Of a stretch of DNA of 64,000 nucleotides, positions 29,566 through 53,298 are shown piece by piece (position 1 is the first letter of the stretch; each line of letters starts with the position of its first letter). The stretch is from a phage: NCBI GenBank assembly GCA_032986305.1, contig GCA_032986305.1_3672.1; one strand, 5' to 3'. The notes under the pieces are model-generated. The model was not told the origin of the DNA, did no database searches, and saw only the letters and a list, made by a program, of their open reading frames with translations. The translations under genes were made by a program, and so were the position numbers.

Positions 29566-30754
29566 CCTGAAGAGGCAAACGTGCATAATTCCTGTGCATT
29601 GGAACGTATGAAACCCTGTTCACACTCTCATTTCCAGAGGAGATTTCATGAAGATAGAAATATTTGGTGGAGCTGACAACACTCGTGGCCTGATTTACCT
29701 TGAATTCGATGAATCATACCTGCCAGAGGTGTTAAATATAAACTCTGTTGCTGAGGCTTTGGGAGTAAACCCTAAAGAACTCCACTCTTGTGCTGAGATC
29801 GATGGTTGGGAAGAGACCATGAACATTGATTTCAGTGAAGTAGAGGATGAACCGCTGGACTGACACACAATTAGCTGCCCGGCTAAAGTGCTGGAAGCAC
29901 CTATAACACATCTTTCAACTAAATTTCCCACCACCACAATCACTTACCTCCCACACATGACTGTTTGCTTGTTTAGTGAGCAGTCATGCCTTGACATTCT
30001 TGCCTATCCTGATAAAATTAAGTTCTTCTCTTTTCTTTTACCGAGTAATTCGGGTTTTCTGTTCTCTTCGGTTTGAAGAGGTATGGAGATACACCTGAGT
30101 GAACAGGGTGAACAACCGAACCATTGGCTATGGCATTAGCATGGCGAAGCGGACGGGTGACGAAAGAGGGGCCGGAGGACACCAGTCACTGCCATATGAT
30201 ATACGGGTGATAACCTGAAGAGTCTGAATAAGTGTTTAAGTACCAGTCAGAGGAAAAGGTGAATGGTAGCCGAAGGGGGAGGGGGGTTTCTTGTATCTTT
30301 AATTTGTATATTATGTATACACTTGTAAACCAATCTCATCTGAATCTGTTTACTACACAAAGCTGATAGGGACAAATATTACCTATTAAACTTGAATTAT
30401 TTATAGAAAATACCACAACACAACTTAAGTCTTTGATTTTACACACAAATCCTGCAGATATTCACCCTCCATATTTAACATACTTGTAACATATTCCATA
30501 CTCTACCTACCTGATCAATTTACCCACCAACATCCTCCATATTTTCCCTGTCTGTACCACCCCTGCCCCGCCGGGAGTCCCGTCATATCTGGCTTTCCAG
30601 CAAATATCACACCCACAAATATCATTGCCTGAAGAGGATTTCATCTCATAATACATGCCTTGCCTGAAGAGCGCTTCATACACCACGTAAATTTTTTAAT
30701 TGACCCCCTCCCCGCCGCCGGAGAGGTTGGCTTTTCCCACACAGACCTGAAGAG
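29566..30754. repeat. five dispersed copies of 9-mer CCTGAAGAG
   Basis: Exact copies at 29566, 30214, 30628, 30663, 30746 within non-coding DNA. Confidence 0.6.
29648..29863 (+). CDS. small acidic protein
   Basis: SD GAGGAGA; last plus-strand gene before noncoding region. Confidence 0.4.
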   Translation: MKIEIFGGADNTRGLIYLEFDESYLPEVLNINSVAEALGVNPKELHSCAEIDGWEETMNIDFSEVEDEPLD

Positions 30755-31279
30755 TCAGCCAGAAATATCTGAATGGACCCAATTCTGCCCTGTTATGAGC
30801 CGTAGCTACTGGAGTGCTGCCAGGCGGACGAAATGGGAATACTTCTCATTCTTATAACAATTCTCAAATATCAAGGCAGTGAGTCAAATTAATAGGCGAG
30901 GCCGTTCACACAGTGGCACAACATTTGCAACCTATCTTGTGGGGGTGAATGAGAATACCTATCATTGTGAGAATAGTTATCATTACGGGCAATTTAACAT
31001 AATACCCATTATGCGCACCACTGGCGATACATACAGGGATTGATAACATGAGTTACTGTTTACGCATATAACAATTATATTTCTTACTATTTGTGTGGGA
31101 TATAGTTAGCAGCCAATAGATTAGATATTGACCTGTAGACTTCCAACCGTCTAGACGTCTAAACGCCCACACAGCAAGGGTTATACATACACTTCTGAAT
31201 GTAAACAGGGCCGCAAAAATGCTACCATACCAGTTTGTAAATTTTTCATGCAGCACTTGACAAAGAGGAGAAAAACTTG

Positions 31280-31440
31280 TCTGACACTTTAGACACAATA
31301 GTGACATACTATGACACCTTTGACACTTTTGCATACCTGATTGTTTGCATGTCTAATAGTTTACATGGATAACTGTTCACATACTTATCATTTACATGAT
31401 TGACTGTTTACACAAATATGATAAGCCATGACATTCGTTT
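31280..31440. repeat. iteron-like direct repeat arrays (TGACAC(T)TT x3; GTTTRCAY x7 at about 16-bp period)
   Basis: Read directly: tttgcat, gtttgcat, gtttacat, gttcacat, atttacat, gtttacac, gtttgcat in series. Confidence 0.55.
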
Positions 31441-31500
31441 GCATGAAAACAATTAACAAGATAACAATTGACAAGCTAACAGCCAACAAGCTGACAATTA
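31441..31500. repeat. four tandem 15-bp repeats (consensus NTAACAATTRACAAG)
   Basis: aaaacaattaacaag / ataacaattgacaag / ctaacagccaacaag / ctgacaattaacagg. Confidence 0.55.
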
Positions 31501-31517
31501 ACAGGTTAATAATATAT

Positions 31518-31687
31518 GACATAATATAAAAGCAGGGCAACTATTAGCAGATCTATAGTTGCCTTGCTTGTTATGTCATGATTAACTAAATACAAGGCAA
31601 CTATGATCTGATTAATAGTTTGCAGACAAACTATCACGGGGGTGATTGTTACTGCTTTTATATTATGTCGCGACTCCGTCGCGACAT
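31518..31687. repeat. nested inverted repeats (18-bp IR GACATAATATAAAAGCAG, inner palindromes, GTCGCGAC x2)
   Basis: 18-bp perfect inverted repeat at 31518-31535 and 31654-31671; GGCAACTAT-n-ATAGTTGCC; ATAGTTTG-caga-CAAACTAT. Confidence 0.55.
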
Positions 31688-32307
31688 GTCATTCGTTTGC
31701 ATAGTTGCCTTATTGTTACGGATAAAATAATTGTATTGTTAATTATTTCTTATCTTTCTCTTAGTCATCTAATGATTCCAGTCAGTATAGTAATGTACAG
31801 TAAACATTAGACGACTAAATATTTCTCTGATTATAGTAACCTATCGTGACAATTTCGGACTGTTTACGAAAAATGTTGACACCTGGGCAGGTTTATGTTA
31901 TGCAGTTTGTACGAATAATTATTTTATACAGGTATTGACTATTCCGTTATTCTGTGGTTGGAATAAATACTTTGCAGGCTATAGAATGATGTTCGTACGT
32001 GAATTCTGAGATCTGTCGGCTATAGTTACACCCGATTTTTCACGTAGGACACGCTTTTTGGTTTGTGTAAGTGTATGACTTATAAGGGTTTTTAATTGTT
32101 GACAGTATGCTGAAAATGTGCATCAGGTTAAATTTTGTGCAATAGCTGCATTACGTGCGTTTTTGGAAGGAAAAACGTGTAAAAATGACCCTGCTACCAC
32201 AAGATGAAAGATTATGCAATAGTTATTTTATATGTATATTTGTACAGTGTGCGGGATTAATGGCTCGTCAATTATTCCACTTGCCAGGTAGGGCCGTTTA
32301 TGGTAGG

Positions 32308-32953: not shown

Positions 32954-33062
32954 AATGTTTTCCTCTCTTCTGGTTGTTGTGTGGGCACTTTTGCCCCTTC
33001 AAGATAAATGTTACCTAACCACCTGGCAGATGTCAACTGTTTTTATAGTTTTTATATAACGG

Positions 33063-33100
33063 GCACCCCCGGTGATTGTCTCCCCCCCGTCGCCAGGTGC
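33063..33100 (-). repeat. conserved GC-rich element (GGGAGACAATCACCGGG-GTGCCCGTTAT), copy 3
   Basis: Reverse-complement match to elements at 41484-41520 and 41625-41660; here just upstream of a minus-strand promoter. Confidence 0.5.
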
Positions 33101-33156
33101 CACCCGTGAGATAAGTATAACAAAAAACAGGACCATTGCAAGCCCTGTTTATTATC

Positions 33157-39234: not shown

Positions 39235-39287
39235 GTTTACTTTATTGATGGCCCTGGAGTCAAGGCCATCTAAAAATAAATTTTACT
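39235..39287. repeat. repeated palindromic intergenic element (copy 2)
   Basis: gatggccctggagtcaaggccatc with one mismatch in stem. Confidence 0.6.
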
Positions 39288-39594
39288 CGTTTTCTTCCAG
39301 CTCTGTCTGCAATTCCTGGTATTCTTCATCGTCCTCAATATCCAGGCTGTCGATGTAGTCGCTAAATCCGCAGCGGTAAGCGATAGGATCTAACTCCTTG
39401 AGGATACGCGACGGAAGAAAAGAAATGTTTCCGATCATAATTTCGCCGTAGATCTCGTCTAGCCATTCGTCATAGTTTTCGTCGTACTTGTCCTCGTCGA
39501 TTTCAAAGTTATCGATCTTGTTCTCAAGGTCTGCGATCTGTTTTTTCAGCGCGGCGATCTGCATAGCTTTTTCTGCGGCGGTCATAGTAGTCAT
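39283..39594 (-). CDS. hypothetical acidic protein
   Basis: SD AAAAGGAGAAA; Asp/Glu-rich. Confidence 0.45.
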   Translation of the reverse strand: MTTMTAAEKAMQIAALKKQIADLENKIDNFEIDEDKYDENYDEWLDEIYGEIMIGNISFLPSRILKELDPIAYRCGFSDYIDSLDIEDDEEYQELQTELEENE

Positions 39595-39826: not shown

Positions 39827-39876
39827 TTTACTTTATTGATGGCCCTGGAGTCAAGGCCATCTAAAAATAAACTTAA
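39827..39876. repeat. repeated palindromic intergenic element (copy 3)
   Basis: Identical core to copy 2. Confidence 0.6.
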
Positions 39877-41282: not shown

Positions 41283-41440
41283 TTTTGTACCTCCTCTTCA
41301 ATTGTTACCTATCCTATAGCATAGGCCCACCAGGTTTGCAAGCCTTCATTCTCTCCTACCTGGTCAGTTAGGTCCTACCAGGCTGGCCCCGCCAGGTTGC
41401 AGCGGTTAGCGCATCAGGTTAGAAAATTTTTTTGAAAAGT

Positions 41441-41580
41441 GTTGACAGCGGCCCAGCCAGGTGGCACAATATACCTATCGAAAGGACGGCAGGCACCGGT
41501 GACGGGGGAGACAACCACCGGGGATGGGCGCTGCATAAAATGAGAACGGTTATCATTATCCTTTAAAAATTTATGCAAAA
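41441..41580 (+). ncRNA. candidate small RNA unit 1 (promoter TTGACA-17-CACAAT plus structured GC-rich transcript)
   Basis: No ORF; contains conserved element GGGAGACAACCACCGGGG and GAGAACGGTTATCATT. Confidence 0.35.
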
Positions 41581-41589
41581 ATCCTTGCT

Positions 41590-41720
41590 TTCTTTGTCCT
41601 GTGTGATACTATAATAACAAGCCGGGGCAACAGGGGCCGGGAGACAATCACCGGGCCTGCCCGTTATTCTGCAAACGAGAATGATTATCATTCAAAATTC
41701 TAAATGAGAACTCCTCGCAT
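41590..41720 (+). ncRNA. candidate small RNA unit 2 (promoter TTGCTT-16-TACTAT plus structured transcript)
   Basis: Paralogous to unit 1: GGGAGACAATCACCGGG ... GAGAATGATTATCATTC (AU hairpin). Confidence 0.35.
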
Positions 41721-41814
41721 TTAATAAATTTAATTAGCATGCTAATTACCCTCCGTAACAATTTCCTATAAAACAGTATCCCATAAAATATTCCCATACA
41801 GAAATTTTAAAAAT

Positions 41815-41990
41815 CCATTTCTGAAAACGAAAAATCGATTTCGTCCCCAAAAATTTCAGGTCGAGATCCGGAACGATTTCTAGAAAATCCGATTTAGAAA
41901 ACGAAAAACAGATCGAGTACTGAGAAATTTATCGAGAAAAATTTTCAGAAAATTCAATCTTTGAAACGAAAAACAGATCGAGTACCTGGA
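41815..41990. repeat. tandem direct repeats (about 66-73 bp period) containing GAAAACGAAAAACAGATCGAGTAC
   Basis: Three copies at about 41824, 41897, 41963. Confidence 0.55.
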
Positions 41991-42298
41991 AAGCTGCACT
42001 GCAACTTCAAGATAGTGGTTAGATTATTACCATAGAAGGTCAAGGGTAAGTGGAGGAAGTTCTAGTAGAAGGATGTGAGCATGTGTGGGAAATCTGTAAT
42101 GGTGGCCTGAAATATGGTGCAAACGATAGGATGAGTGATTCAGCTTGTCGCGCCTACTCTGAAAAAATCCATTTTAGTTTTCGATCCATTTTCTGATTTT
42201 CTAAGGATTTTAAAATATCCGGCCCGGTGAAATATCAAAAGGAGGAAATCCATTTTAGAAATCCCCCTTATACTTGATATGCCAGGAATTTTCAAGTA

Positions 42299-49690: not shown

Positions 49691-49914
49691 AGGTCCTCTT
49701 CAACAACTACAAACTTGGCAAGCAAAGTGGTTCCGTAGATATGATACTCACCGTTTGCCAGGTGAGAGATATACCAGGCAACCCCTTCCTCGTCTTTAAT
49801 CATTTTGTTTGCACGAGCTTTATCGTAATAAACCTCGTAGGTCTTTCCTTCTTTAAAGAAGGACAGGTCTGTCATCTTTTCTTCTACAAAAGTAGCTTTA
49901 ACCAAAGTTGTCAT
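49687..49914 (-). CDS. hypothetical protein
   Basis: 75 aa. Confidence 0.4.
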   Translation of the reverse strand: MTTLVKATFVEEKMTDLSFFKEGKTYEVYYDKARANKMIKDEEGVAWYISHLANGEYHIYGTTLLAKFVVVEEDL

Positions 49915-50601: not shown

Positions 50602-50868
50602 TAGTTCAGGTAGGTCGTTAAGCTACCCCGCACCATTACGTGCATAGCCATACGTTTTCACGTAGGATCGGACCATCTCATATTCCTATGATAAGCAACC
50701 ACAGGAATCCTCCCATTTCGACCGCACTTGCTGGTCTACTTCCTTTCGGAATGGCCTCTGAGCGTTCGCTCTTTTGAGCGCTTCGTTGCGGATTACCTTG
50801 CCATAAGGTTTAGGCTTCCCGCAGTTAAAGAGGTTATTCGACATAGATTACTCTATGAAGCCACAATG

Positions 50869-53298
50869 TTATTTATGGTAATAAATAATACGACGAACAC
50901 CTTCATCGTACCACCCACGCTTCACCATTTGGTGGTGCATGAGTATCCCAACTAAGTCACACAGCGATGCACCACCATTCTGTTGGTATGCATTAAGTAA
51001 AGAGTGTTTAGATCGGGTCCAGATGGCATGACCATCAAAAGAGTAGATAAACTTCTTACCCGTTGCTTCCCAGAATTTCTCCAGATCCTCTTTACGCCCC
51101 TTAAGACCAGGGTTGGCATCCCAAAGTGCATCGATTACCCTTTGTCCCAACTCTGGAGAGATGTCCAGCATATCTGCAACTTTATCTTTTTGTGCCCCGT
51201 ACATAACCCCATACGTGATAGGTTTACCGTCGTTACGGGACACCTCTCTGCCTGCTACTTTTGTATATGCCTCAGCATTGTTTTGGTGTGCGTCTCCGTT
51301 ACTTACAACATCGTAATACAGGCCGTTGTCGAACTCAAAGGCACCCCAAGCCCCGATAAGCTGCTCTAAGTTGGACCCGTCGATACCGATCTCAAAGTAT
51401 CCTGGAGGAACACCCCACAAGCTACGCATCTCTTTACCCATAACCACTTTAGGAGAGGGTTTAGGCATGTTTGCACAAATACTGTGTTTCTGTCTGGAAG
51501 TGTTTGTTAATCCAGAGCTTTTAGCAGGAAGCTTATGGTCAATCTTCAAGCGTGGGTGATTAAGAAGACCAGTATCAACCTTATCCTCCTTGATCGGATC
51601 AAGGACCGATCTGCGGTTTCGCAATGATAACCACAAGACGATATCTTTAGCCATCTCTCCGTTCAATTTTTCAAGATTCGGACATAGGTGTCCAAACGTA
51701 TCTTTCAGTTGCGGAGAAGTAATAAGTGCCCTAGCTTTTCTACGTATTTTCCTGAATACTTCCTTTTTAATCCTTTCGGAGTTAGGAAAGCTTCGGAACT
51801 TGTGCACAGTTGTCTGGAACTTAGCATCAGTTTTGTTCCAGAAGTTGATAATTAGGTCACAATACTCTGACTCCAAAAGCTCGTCCATATATGCATATAC
51901 TCGTGCATCAACATCTGCATCAGGTAAAGCTTTCTTCTTGCTGTCTTTAGTTACATCCTTAGTTCTCCACATTGTCGGAAGCCAGCCAGCACTGATCAGG
52001 TATCGCTTAATGTCGTCCTGGTTGCTGATTTTCATAGGTATCTTGCAGTCCGGCATTCGCTTCTGCTGTAGATCACTTATTGCCTGATCCATCAACTCTT
52101 TAGGTAAAGGGTGTGGTGTGGAAGTGCCCTTAATATAGCCTCTCAAGAAATCAGCCATCTTATCGGGGTCTTTGCATCCCATCTCTTCACACCATTTTAT
52201 CCCCATCTTGCTGACATCTCCTGTAGAGGTAAATGCTCTCTTAGGCGGGGCTTTGAACTCTAAAGCGCTCATGTCTACAGGATATCCAAGCTTATCTTTT
52301 AACCATTTCCAACCATTATTAGAGATTGTCCCGTCTTGGTTAAACGGCTTTTCAGGGAACTTGGGCCGCTGAGACATTGACAGCTCTTTTAAAGGCAGTT
52401 GTGGTTCAACACGATCAGCGATTTCTTTCATCCACGCATCGCAACGGTCACGTAAAGCAATAGCTCCATCTATGTCGAAATATACGCCCTGACGGGCCTG
52501 CAGCTCCATCAGGAAGTGCTGCAGCATACCTCGGCGCAATGCGTTCTTCCAGGTGATCTTCTTGAACCCTTTTGGCTTCTCTTTGGCAGGATCGTACATA
52601 AAGTTCTGCATGTCAGATTTGCCGTAGAATACACCTTTTGATTCCGCTACCAGCTCTTTCCAGAGCAACTCCTGGATGATAACGTCCTCGAATACACGAT
52701 CCACATACTTCCACAACGGAAGATCGCGCCAGTCATCAATTTGAACTTTCTGGTTACCAAGGGCGTAGCCCCATGCCATAAGGCCGTGAGGACCAACAGG
52801 CTGCATTTTCTTAGTAACCGGGTTGAATACAGCGTCCGGACAACCTTTTGGTAAAGGGCGATCAGGCCACAAGATTCGGCTCATCGCCAACGTATCAAAC
52901 AGGTTAACCTGGTGGTCGTTGATAGTCCCCATACATTTAGGATCACGGAACATATCAAAATGAATACCGGATAATCTCTCCATCAGCATAAAGTCATAAC
53001 TATAGCAGTTATGGCAGTTCAAAGCTGTTGGTGACCAGTCGGAATTGCCTGTAAGCCAACCTTCCAACTCCGAAAAATCTGCTATGCGAACTTCAAAATC
53101 TTTATAAAGAGCTTTCTTTGCCAGAATAAAGTTCTTAGCCTTCTCTATATCCTCCTCGGAGTAGTGTGTGCGGTCATTTAGAGGGAGGAACAGCATAAAA
53201 CGGTTCTTATTCAGCTCTTTAAACAGGCCGCAGTGATAATAAAGATCTGGGTCTTCCAAAAGCCCGGAGGCCTCAAAATCGAAGCTATACATGCTCAT
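50869..53298 (-). CDS. family A DNA polymerase (T7 gp5-like) with 3'-5' exonuclease domain
   Basis: Exo I FDFEASGL; motif A GIDGSNLEQL (cf. T7 DASGLELR); motif B RNDGKPITYGVMYG; SD AAGGAG. Confidence 0.75.
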   Translation of the reverse strand: MSMYSFDFEASGLLEDPDLYYHCGLFKELNKNRFMLFLPLNDRTHYSEEDIEKAKNFILAKKALYKDFEVRIADFSELEGWLTGNSDWSPTALNCHNCYSYDFMLMERLSGIHFDMFRDPKCMGTINDHQVNLFDTLAMSRILWPDRPLPKGCPDAVFNPVTKKMQPVGPHGLMAWGYALGNQKVQIDDWRDLPLWKYVDRVFEDVIIQELLWKELVAESKGVFYGKSDMQNFMYDPAKEKPKGFKKITWKNALRRGMLQHFLMELQARQGVYFDIDGAIALRDRCDAWMKEIADRVEPQLPLKELSMSQRPKFPEKPFNQDGTISNNGWKWLKDKLGYPVDMSALEFKAPPKRAFTSTGDVSKMGIKWCEEMGCKDPDKMADFLRGYIKGTSTPHPLPKELMDQAISDLQQKRMPDCKIPMKISNQDDIKRYLISAGWLPTMWRTKDVTKDSKKKALPDADVDARVYAYMDELLESEYCDLIINFWNKTDAKFQTTVHKFRSFPNSERIKKEVFRKIRRKARALITSPQLKDTFGHLCPNLEKLNGEMAKDIVLWLSLRNRRSVLDPIKEDKVDTGLLNHPRLKIDHKLPAKSSGLTNTSRQKHSICANMPKPSPKVVMGKEMRSLWGVPPGYFEIGIDGSNLEQLIGAWGAFEFDNGLYYDVVSNGDAHQNNAEAYTKVAGREVSRNDGKPITYGVMYGAQKDKVADMLDISPELGQRVIDALWDANPGLKGRKEDLEKFWEATGKKFIYSFDGHAIWTRSKHSLLNAYQQNGGASLCDLVGILMHHQMVKRGWYDEGVRRIIYYHK

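Follow-up and report, generated by a model that had tools for sequence, protein, structure and literature searches.

What is the role of a gene-free control region whose promoters point against the operons on both sides of it? The question is raised by a phage DNA of 64,000 nucleotides (contig GCA_032986305.1_3672.1; this whole stretch is called the window), in which a gap at ~41283-42298 separates two leftward (minus-strand) gene blocks and holds two promoter-like sites, P1 and P2, that point rightward and oppose both. An earlier reading made from the sequence alone (the sequence-only reading) had proposed that each site is followed by a copy of a structured-RNA module, and that the copies might be paired small RNAs or a protein-binding enhancer. 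We arrive at a composite answer: this main non-coding control region contains two tandem cassettes, each combining a promoter, a leader and an operator for the host iron repressor Fur, an arrangement that we regard as reasonably secure. With a probability of roughly 0.4, the locus would be a non-coding transcription unit that is gated by iron and lies between two early operons.

A GC-rich element follows sigma70-type promoters

The GC-rich element GGGAGACAAYCACCGGG is present in exactly three copies in the 64 kb, at 41506-41522 and 41639-41655 on the plus strand and at 33068-33084 on the minus strand, and no further copy was found in the window when up to three mismatches were allowed. Dinucleotide shuffles averaged 0.21 copies, and in 100 of them three copies never occurred, indicating that the repeat is non-random and that the sequence-only reading had picked out a real element. 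All three copies are located 23-36 nucleotides 3′ of a same-strand sigma70-type -10 element. The units and their promoters are:

41419 to 41440, plus strand: A/T-rich tract AGAAAATTTTTTTGAAAAGTG upstream of P1, read from the sequence
41442 to 41470, plus strand: promoter P1, composed of TTGACA, a 17-nucleotide GC-rich spacer with CCAGGT, TG and CACAAT; promoter scan, 10/12 matches plus the TG motif
41489 to 41534, plus strand: unit 1 GC-rich leader, predicted hairpin, core GGGAGACAACCACCGGG at 41506-41522; minimum free energy -20 to -25.6 kcal/mol, z = -1.8
41559 to 41612, plus strand: promoter P2, composed of an A/T-rich upstream tract, -35 element TTGCTT at 41585-41590, a 16-nucleotide spacer and the extended -10 element TGaTACTAT at 41604-41612; read from the sequence
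41625 to 41662, plus strand: unit 2 GC-rich leader, predicted hairpin, core GGGAGACAATCACCGGG at 41639-41655, then conserved GTTATTCTGC; from folds, pair counts and cross-genus conservation
33059 to 33141, minus strand: unit 3, composed of a promoter (TTGCAA at 33141-33136, a 16-nucleotide spacer, TATACT at 33119-33114) and a predicted leader hairpin at 33107-33059 with its core at 33084-33068, without a Fur box; from sequence and folds
33008 to 33036, minus strand: ordinary early promoter TTGACA-17-TAACAT directly 3′ of unit 3, driving the gene that starts at ~32957

P1 is predicted to start transcription at ~41477; its spacer is the third copy of the repeat GGCCCnnCCAGGTnGCA, and the tract upstream of it is one that we take to resemble the UP-element consensus. 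P2 was missed by the promoter-scan criteria. Its -10 element is overlapped by TATAAT at 41610-41615, its predicted start is ~41619, and a promoter in the P2 position relative to the element is kept in every related genus examined. Both plus-strand promoters of the sequence-only reading are therefore plausible, P1 by the scan and P2 by its conserved position. No open reading frame (ORF) follows them, as had been claimed: the ORFs flanking the gap are neatly tiled and on the minus strand, and the plus strand of the gap is free of genes.

The copy at 33 kb had been placed immediately upstream of a minus-strand promoter. It does lie upstream of TTGACA-17-TAACAT (33036-33008), but it also lies downstream of TTGCAA-16-TATACT (33141-33114). 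The same promoter-plus-element cassette is thus also found upstream of ordinary gene promoters, both as unit 3 and as five copies in one uncultured phage.

At 42221-42230 (plus strand) the window carries GGCCCGGTGA, whose 10 nucleotides are perfectly reverse-complementary to the 3′ part of the unit 2 core, just 5′ of an AAGGAGG that has no start codon after it; this could represent an incomplete fourth copy or have arisen by chance.

The second half of the module resembles a Fur operator

The second half of the module, GAGAAYGRTTATCATT, lies at 41542-41557 and 41677-41692. A weight matrix detected six strong Fur boxes, at 41538, 41673, 41702, 30831, 30947 and 30965, and none elsewhere in the window:

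41538 to 41558, no strand: Fur box 1, AAATGAGAACGGTTATCATTA; matrix score 27.3, with the 19-mer 41542-41560 matching the E. coli Fur consensus at 16/19
41673 to 41693, no strand: Fur box 2, AAACGAGAATGATTATCATTC; matrix score 28.3, 15/19 of the E. coli consensus, perfect 7-1-7 dyad GAATGATtATCATTC
41702 to 41722, no strand: Fur box 3, weaker, AAATGAGAACTCCTCGCATTT; matrix score 22.9, third member of direct-repeat family D3
30831 to 30985, no strand: second cluster, three Fur boxes at 30831-30851, 30947-30967 and 30965-30985 with matrix scores 24.8, 23.0 and 18.4, inside a 2.4-kb non-coding region

Measured against GATAATGATAATCATTATC, the sites at 41542 (16/19) and 41677 (15/19) are the two best 19-mers in the 64 kb, where shuffles average 3.2 sites at ≥14/19. 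The half-sites vary independently, with the mismatches G.A and A.C left uncompensated and the box of phage PVP-SE1 reading AATGAGAATgATTCTCATT, which argues for DNA recognition and not RNA pairing. Overlapping site pairs 6 bp apart were found at 41536/41542, 41671/41677, 30945/30951 and 30963/30969, and genuine Fur clusters consist of overlapping sites offset by 3 or 6 bp (PMC2189734).

The consensus 21-mer (AAATGAGAATGATTCTCATTT) was found in 107 stretches of bacterial genomes from many phyla. According to Pfam, the genes starting within ~200 bp of it include those for TonB-dependent receptors, Fur-family regulators, FeoA, binding proteins of the Fe3+ type and the ZnuA family, an extracytoplasmic function (ECF) sigma factor, and ferritin-like, rubrerythrin, PepSY_TM and ZIP proteins. 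It is this gene context that points to Fur. At the level of sequence they combine the features by which Fur operators are recognized: a consensus match, a dyad with independent half-sites, overlapping clusters and a bacterial iron-gene context. Judged by sequence and bacterial gene context, the boxes are operators for host Fur, and Fur would be expected to bind them in infected cells.

Other readings of the box were rejected. An RNA hairpin does not account for half-site changes that are not compensatory; judged by eye, the spacing is 5 rather than the 6 of a CRP operator, and the half-site is not that of ArgR. Some genera might have a Fur-repressed minus-strand promoter (TTGAAT-box-CAGAAT) that reads into the hairpin, but this is not general, because a 40-nucleotide insertion breaks its spacing (L087/L124) and unit 3 has no box.

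Relatives carry homologous boxes in 1-4 copies. In Escherichia phage JES2013 (137 kb) strong boxes occur solely in the same two clusters, which lie in its two largest non-coding regions. More widely, a version of the box with 18 specified bases was found in at least 120 viral contigs of all sizes and of GC content 0.21 to 0.59, and the perfect Fur consensus AATGAGAATGATTNTCATT in at least 120 unrelated viral contigs (L126-L244), some of which may be prophages or host contamination. Among the matches listed, AATGAGAATGATTNTCATT is often tandem at 28-45 bp spacing, and the box is often located 10 nucleotides past the -10 element of sigma70-like TTGACA-N17-TAAAAT promoters in the context GGCGCC-N3-box, a position in which it frequently overlaps the promoter start. 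In the literature searched, we found no description of Fur boxes or the leader in Vequintavirinae or related phages.

The 2.4-kb region around the second cluster (~29900-32300) is without credible ORFs and marks the place where plus- and minus-strand gene blocks converge. It is the ‘non-coding’ box of the rV5 genome paper, which marks just this box and sigma70 promoters (PMC3606486), and it also contains several copies of CCTGAAGAG. A dense array of TTGACA/TTTGCAT/TTTACAT-like motifs occupies 31240-31500, with one motif every ~10-12 bp.

The leader is a probable hairpin with a nearly invariant core

The core of the leader, GAGACAAnCACCG-N2-CCUGC, is nearly invariant and the leader matches no curated RNA family: in Rfam 15, neither the units nor the loci of three relatives gave a match at the gathering threshold or at E ≤ 10. 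Evidence on its structure came from single-sequence folds of 24 copies and from pair counts on 12 collinear sequences from other genera. In the folds, GAGACAA lies mostly in the loop, and in most lineages the first nucleotides of the predicted transcript pair with the sequence just past the core. In the 12 sequences the closing helix (helix 1; 6 bp, AURGCG with CGYYAU) is 95.8% paired, and overall 77% of cells are paired, compared with 31-52% when the partners are slid. Pair 3-49 in the closing helix occurs as GC, AU and GU types, pair 21-38 in the small inner helix as CG, GC, UA and UG, and the covariation score was matched by 2 of 500 shuffles. Exchanging 5′ and 3′ arms between copies carried a mean cost of 1.3 kcal/mol, with cognate arms folding better (permutation p = 0.0066). 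The predicted +1 ‘A’ opens the closing helix in most clear-hairpin lineages (the PVP-SE1 group, units 2 and 3); in unit 1 and in Pseudomonas phage KPP10 the helix starts further downstream.

Several observations count against a purely structural element. A search for covarying homologous structures, suggested by the sequence-only reading as a check, gave a divided result: two pairs show compensatory changes, but RNAalifold returned no consensus structure for the mixed alignment and helix 2 (the middle helix) is 50% paired. Single-sequence energy z-scores are modest (-1.5 to -1.9), and the 3′ half is kept as sequence while the 5′ arm drifts. Furthermore, the five copies in one uncultured phage (L093) form a weak hairpin and still keep the linear 20-nucleotide sequence, which is more easily explained by sequence-specific recognition of DNA or RNA than by structure alone. 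With moderate support, the leader probably forms a 5′-terminal hairpin, and on our reading the element would be recognized at least partly by sequence.

These results divide the two proposals of the sequence-only reading between the halves of the module. The structured-RNA module describes the first half, for which a transcribed, structured GC-rich leader is the best reading, but not the second, which resembles a DNA operator with uncompensated changes. Conversely, the protein-binding alternative appears right for the second half, read as a Fur operator, but as a repressor site and not as an enhancer.

Further candidates for the leader were considered and rejected. A leaderless peptide read from the +1 AUG of PVP-SE1-type copies is contradicted by the many lineages without AUG and by differing reading frames, and a G-quadruplex by G-tracts that are not kept outside Vequintavirus. 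The pseudo-ToxI anti-defence RNA of the rV5-like phage phiTE is not a relative, its locus lying by tRNAs and the terminase gene and not in an equivalent gap; nor are sRNA1 and sRNA2 of Pseudomonas phage PAK_P3 homologues, being other sequences at other loci.

The promoter–leader pair is conserved across distant genera

The 1-kb gap is 98% identical to that of JES2013 and shares 88-97% identity with over 100 further Vequintavirus (rV5-like) genomes; by sequence, the window is a Vequintavirus, an rV5-like coliphage. Outside the genus, distant BLAST searches with the gap found only ~41624-41729, the region of unit 2, to be conserved (78-88% identity), with matches in Seunavirus (PVP-SE1), Mydovirus (KpS8, BIS47), Phapecoctavirus, Certrevirus-like phages and phages of Serratia, Erwinia, Pectobacterium and Cronobacter. 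The loci of relatives were read directly, and ~25 further loci came from a pattern scan of viral contigs; since the pattern was loose and its matches mostly due to chance, they were filtered by BLAST and nhmmer.

The loci share a common layout, in which a sigma70-type promoter is followed after 6-7 nucleotides by an ‘A’ that opens the GC-rich leader, then by GAGACAAnCACCG-N2-CCUGCnCG, YYAUUCUG and 1-4 copies of AAATGAGAAT-N-ATTCTCATTY. At the ~25 loci the core is always found 21-39 nucleotides past a same-strand -10 element, and the promoter 6-7 nucleotides 5′ of the leader is kept in PVP-SE1, KpS8, anhysbys and 15 other loci. Copies of the unit 1 type were found solely in Vequintavirus-like contigs (L001, L043, L080, L120). 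Copies of the unit 3 type occur in FFH2, L035 and L062, and in other genera (L087, L109, L124) the unit is followed by a Fur box. Relative to the window, L043 carries a CC-to-GG swap that agrees with unit 3 and points to exchange among the copies.

An nhmmer profile of the core matched L113 (a 93.7-kb contig), L093/L048 (the 46.8-kb uncultured phage with five copies) and L019/L024, and gave no match in unrelated contigs with Fur boxes. Each L093/L048 copy consists of an upstream terminator, a -10 element, 21-23 nucleotides and then GGGGAGACAAACACCGAACCTGC. L019/L024 represent a KPP10-like Pseudomonas phage. Both KPP10 and PAK_P3 carry the element within a gene-free gap of 510 bp, on the opposite strand from the early genes around it. 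TTGACA-cgCCAGGTccgtCCTGG-CATTCT precedes it, and the repeats AAAAACTGTCGAGTACCTTGG and GAAAATCTGTCGAGTACCTTAC follow ~200 nucleotides further on. This trio of features appears in the window in an unchanged order, namely a promoter spacer containing CCAGGT, the core, and CAGATCGAGTAC repeats at 41905-41990, indicating that the whole non-coding hub, and not the hairpin alone, is an old conserved module. The element is thus kept in related genomes; a lack of such conservation had been named as part of what would refute the sequence-only reading.

We also consider it reasonably secure that promoter and leader form a unit, because they are copied as such in unit 3 and in the L093 copies, each just 5′ of a second, ordinary promoter. 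The Fur boxes are, with similar security, separable add-ons to this pair.

A tblastn search for a protein partner shared across the lineages gave a single weak match. This was a 103-amino-acid ORF at 39283-39594 (minus strand), the sole one of 950 ORFs with a match (45% over 51 amino acids) in the KPP10-like L024, ~2 kb from its core.

A second non-coding element, ~85 nucleotides long and very strongly conserved (...CGCCACCCCACGGCGAAAAGGCGGGGCTAAC..ACCAGG..CCTGGTTGGAAGGTGGATCGCCGGTAG), lies with its own promoter just 5′ of unit 2 in relatives from other genera (L003 1336-1440, L004 1315-1405, L002 1383-1462). It varies too little for a covariation test and has no match in Rfam; in the window it is missing, and unit 1 takes its place.

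A possible iron-gated transcription unit

According to the model, each cassette would consist of a strong host-sigma70 promoter, a GC-rich leader of ~45-50 nucleotides that starts at or beside +1 and would form a 5′-terminal hairpin in most lineages, and one or two operators for host Fur. Host RNA polymerase would fire rightward from P1 and P2, against the flanking leftward early operons, to produce a non-coding RNA. Fur-Fe2+ would occupy the boxes, which start 3-10 bp past each hairpin, box 1 also abutting the A/T tract upstream of P2; its binding would limit both initiation at P2 and elongation beyond ~+55. The hairpin leader would then be the stable, sequence-specific part of the RNA made at the locus. 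Transcription from P1 and P2, the action of Fur as a roadblock or by promoter occlusion, and the interaction of the leader are steps that we infer from the sequence, and together they suggest that the phage reads the iron status of its host.

Several findings weigh against this model. No convincing U-tract terminator follows either unit, and a terminator scan of the plus strand returned no site. Fur usually represses from sites over the -35/-10 region, but the boxes here are located ~55-110 nucleotides 3′ of the starts. Hairpin and box also occur independently of each other, the box being absent from unit 3, PAK_P3 and L093 and the hairpin from the boxes at 30.8-31.0 kb. In a Hi-C preprint, gene-poor sequences ‘devoid of transcription’ are described at a fold tip in the early region of PAK_P3; these may or may not be the homologous locus. 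Finally, the published RNA sequencing of PAK_P3 lists no small RNA at the homologous locus.

Host transcription-factor sites are rarely considered in strictly lytic phages, and here six strong Fur operators are predicted in a virulent coliphage, confined to two large non-coding regions. This leads to the testable idea that phages sense or manipulate host iron status via Fur. A more far-reaching version, which we consider quite unlikely, is that in rV5-like phages the Fur boxes and leader form an iron-gated switch within a non-coding hub that licenses rightward priming or antisense transcription or else titrates Fur, that phage development, including its iron-dependent ribonucleotide reductases, would thereby be coupled to host iron status, that virulent phages commonly plug into the host Fur regulon, and that the 20-nucleotide core would be a leader element of a new class, recognized by a partner dedicated to it. 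The promoter-proximal core is shared by rV5-like, phAPEC8-like and KPP10/PAK_P3-like phages, groups widely used as therapeutic phages; having no RNA family match, it marks an unannotated regulatory element in their genomes.

Other features of the gap and its surroundings

The remaining features of the gap are:

41313 to 41341, minus strand: leftward early promoter TTGCAA-17-TATAGG, divergent from P1 and driving the leftward genes from 41282 on; first copy of the D4 repeat, read from the sequence
41731 to 41748, no strand: 18-bp perfect palindrome TAATTAGCATGCTAATTA; the 64 kb has just one other that is perfect and ≥16 bp long
41792 to 41992, no strand: three direct repeats of ~62-74 nucleotides in an A/T-rich stretch (GC 0.376), core GAAAACGAAAAACAGATCGAGTAC

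The palindrome, already seen by the sequence-only reading to follow unit 2, is specific to Vequintavirus, with one mismatch in FFH2; the other perfect palindrome, TCCTTCTTTAAAGAAGGA, is at 49846-49863. Within the 28-48 kb stretch that was profiled, few blocks have positive AT skew, and the direct repeats at 41792-41992, which may be iterons or protein-binding sites, coincide with the largest of these. Their CAGATCGAGTAC core recurs as TCGATCGAGAACC in PVP-SE1 and KpS8 and as CTGTCGAGTACCTT in PAK_P3 and KPP10, and repeats of the TCGAG(T/A)AC type occupy the same relative position in PVP-SE1, KpS8 and PAK_P3. The repeat GGCCCnnCCAGGTnGCA has three copies within 41324-41466 at 61-65 bp spacing, the first of which forms the spacer of the leftward promoter at 41341-41313; related sites are noted at 33021 and 33093. 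CCAGGT occurs at five sites in ~300 bp here, compared with 43 in the whole 64 kb, and also crowds the homologous promoter of PAK_P3.

No tRNA or transfer-messenger RNA was found. In FFH2 and JES2013 the neighbours of the gap are small hypothetical early genes, nearly all on the minus strand. Elsewhere in the window, two identical 30-nucleotide promoter sequences, TTGACTccagggccatcaataaagTAAACT, were found at 39854 and 39263 (minus strand), 590 bp apart and each before a different small gene. A group I catalytic intron was detected at 50649-50884 (minus strand; Rfam RF00028, 64.7 bits, E = 4e-14), at a position adjoining the DNA polymerase region or inside it; HNH endonuclease genes flank the polymerase gene in FFH2 and JES2013.

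Alternative explanations

It could be argued that the whole gap acts at the level of DNA, as a replication origin or genome organizer in which the promoters prime or activate, the TCGAGTAC repeats and CCAGGT serve as iterons or protein sites, and the core is a protein-binding or priming site. The tandem promoters do point into an A/T-rich repeat region (GC 0.376, positive AT skew, three direct repeats), and the order of CCAGGT-spacer promoter, core and TCGAGTAC repeats is common to rV5-like coliphages and KPP10/PAK_P3, even though the adjacent loci examined share almost no protein similarity. The retention of the core as linear sequence where the hairpin is weak is also in keeping with an origin, as are the gene-free anchor sequences that the Hi-C preprint reports in the early region of PAK_P3. 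However, cumulative GC skew declines steadily through the gap, with no inflection there and only small local rises, and the skew of rV5 changes only where the direction of transcription switches (PMC3606486). Single cassettes placed directly 5′ of ordinary gene promoters (unit 3 and the five L093 copies) would be odd for an origin, and the orientation of the core and its close spacing to a promoter are always the same. We therefore regard an origin or organizer as unlikely.

A similarly low likelihood attaches to stand-alone, trans-acting small RNAs, the proposal closest to the paired small RNAs of the sequence-only reading. On this reading, each of units 1-3 would yield a hairpin RNA of ~55-65 nucleotides, with its conserved loop and 3′ arm serving as a seed or decoy towards an RNA or protein of host or phage. 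Every unit comes with a strong promoter of its own, and the sequence of loop and 3′ arm is conserved. A second promoter lies behind unit 3 and the L093 copies, as would be expected if the unit before it were self-contained, and several lineages have a U-run after the hairpin: CUUUUC in KPP10/PAK_P3, UUUUUUG in L093 and UCUUUUG in L113. These runs are clearer than the tails in the window, which are merely UUAUUCU at unit 2 and UUAUAUA at unit 3, with none at unit 1, and with no plus-strand terminator in the scan. No complementary site of ≥11 nucleotides was found in the window, and no match of ~20 nucleotides or more to the core in 5,426 E. coli genomes on either strand. Paired small RNAs are thus unproven, with neither a convincing terminator after the units nor a target found. 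None is listed for PAK_P3, although RNAs of <100 nucleotides are often lost in standard libraries.

Alternatively, the element might act in cis on polymerase from the adjacent promoter, causing processive antitermination or a pause in the manner of lambda nut or HK022 put (as RNA) or ops (as non-template DNA). This would explain why it always occupies the first ~50 nucleotides of the transcript in a fixed orientation, with few copies per genome, each after an early promoter; the conserved single-stranded loop resembles a recognition element, and the early region does contain terminator hairpins, one of which overlaps the unit 3 promoter. Units 1 and 2, however, face gene-free DNA, beyond which they read antisense to genes, no boxA-like or ops-like (GGCGGTAG) sequence was seen by eye and no Rfam match was found, and beyond the single weak tblastn match the element-carrying lineages share no candidate factor, making this reading very unlikely.

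Least probable, and in our view very improbable, are bidirectional terminator or insulator hairpins that separate the two leftward operons, with copy identity due to gene conversion and Fur boxes that mainly titrate host Fur (by our own estimate, six boxes per genome multiplied by copy number could presumably rival the cellular Fur pool): the CUUGUUAUUAU after the unit 2 hairpin in the minus-strand reading, the A-tract and U-tract flanking the PAK_P3 hairpin and the exchange between copies suggested by L043 all fit, but a 20-nucleotide sequence constant from coliphages to Pseudomonas phages and its constant coupling to an upstream promoter are left unexplained.

Comparison with known systems

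The iron-gated unit proposed here can be set beside several known systems. PAK_P3 is likewise a virulent myovirus, with mapped short non-coding and antisense RNAs and a homologue of the core in its 510-bp gene-free gap; its published sRNA1 and sRNA2, however, map to 85-86 kb with unrelated sequences, and the homologous locus at ~50.8 kb is not among the listed RNAs (PMC4933390, PMC10914365).

As in the T7 primary origin and T4 oriF/oriG, tandem promoters lead into an A/T-rich, repeat-containing, gene-free stretch. The T7 primary origin consists of the tandem promoters 1.1A/1.1B and an A/T-rich region, and T4 oriF/oriG are R-loop origins; here, in contrast, the promoters are of the host type, a leader and Fur boxes lie between, and there is no skew signal. 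Lambda nut and HK022 put are leader elements downstream of early promoters. They share with the element its position right after early promoters, its few copies per genome and a hairpin with conserved unpaired sequence, but the element has no boxA, no sequence similarity to them and no N-like partner identified, and two of its three copies have no following genes. T4-type promoter early stem-loop (PeSL) cassettes also combine a small intergenic stem-loop with an early promoter, are repeated in the genome and are shared between phages, and the terminator hairpin of unit 3 similarly overlaps its promoter. The difference is the specific 20-nucleotide leader sequence conserved here 3′ of the promoter, and PeSLs are not known to carry one.

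Enterobacterial Fur operators, including those of Fur-controlled small RNA loci such as ryhB, agree with the boxes in the 15-16/19 consensus match, the 7-1-7 dyad, the 6-bp overlaps and the clusters of 2-4 sites. They differ in setting: the boxes described here belong to a virulent phage, occupy non-coding regions ~55-110 nucleotides 3′ of the starts and control no iron-related gene. With a leader that has neither the sequence nor the defining motif of nut/put or PeSL, what would be new in the locus is the combination of a host-repressor operator with a phage leader or non-coding RNA.

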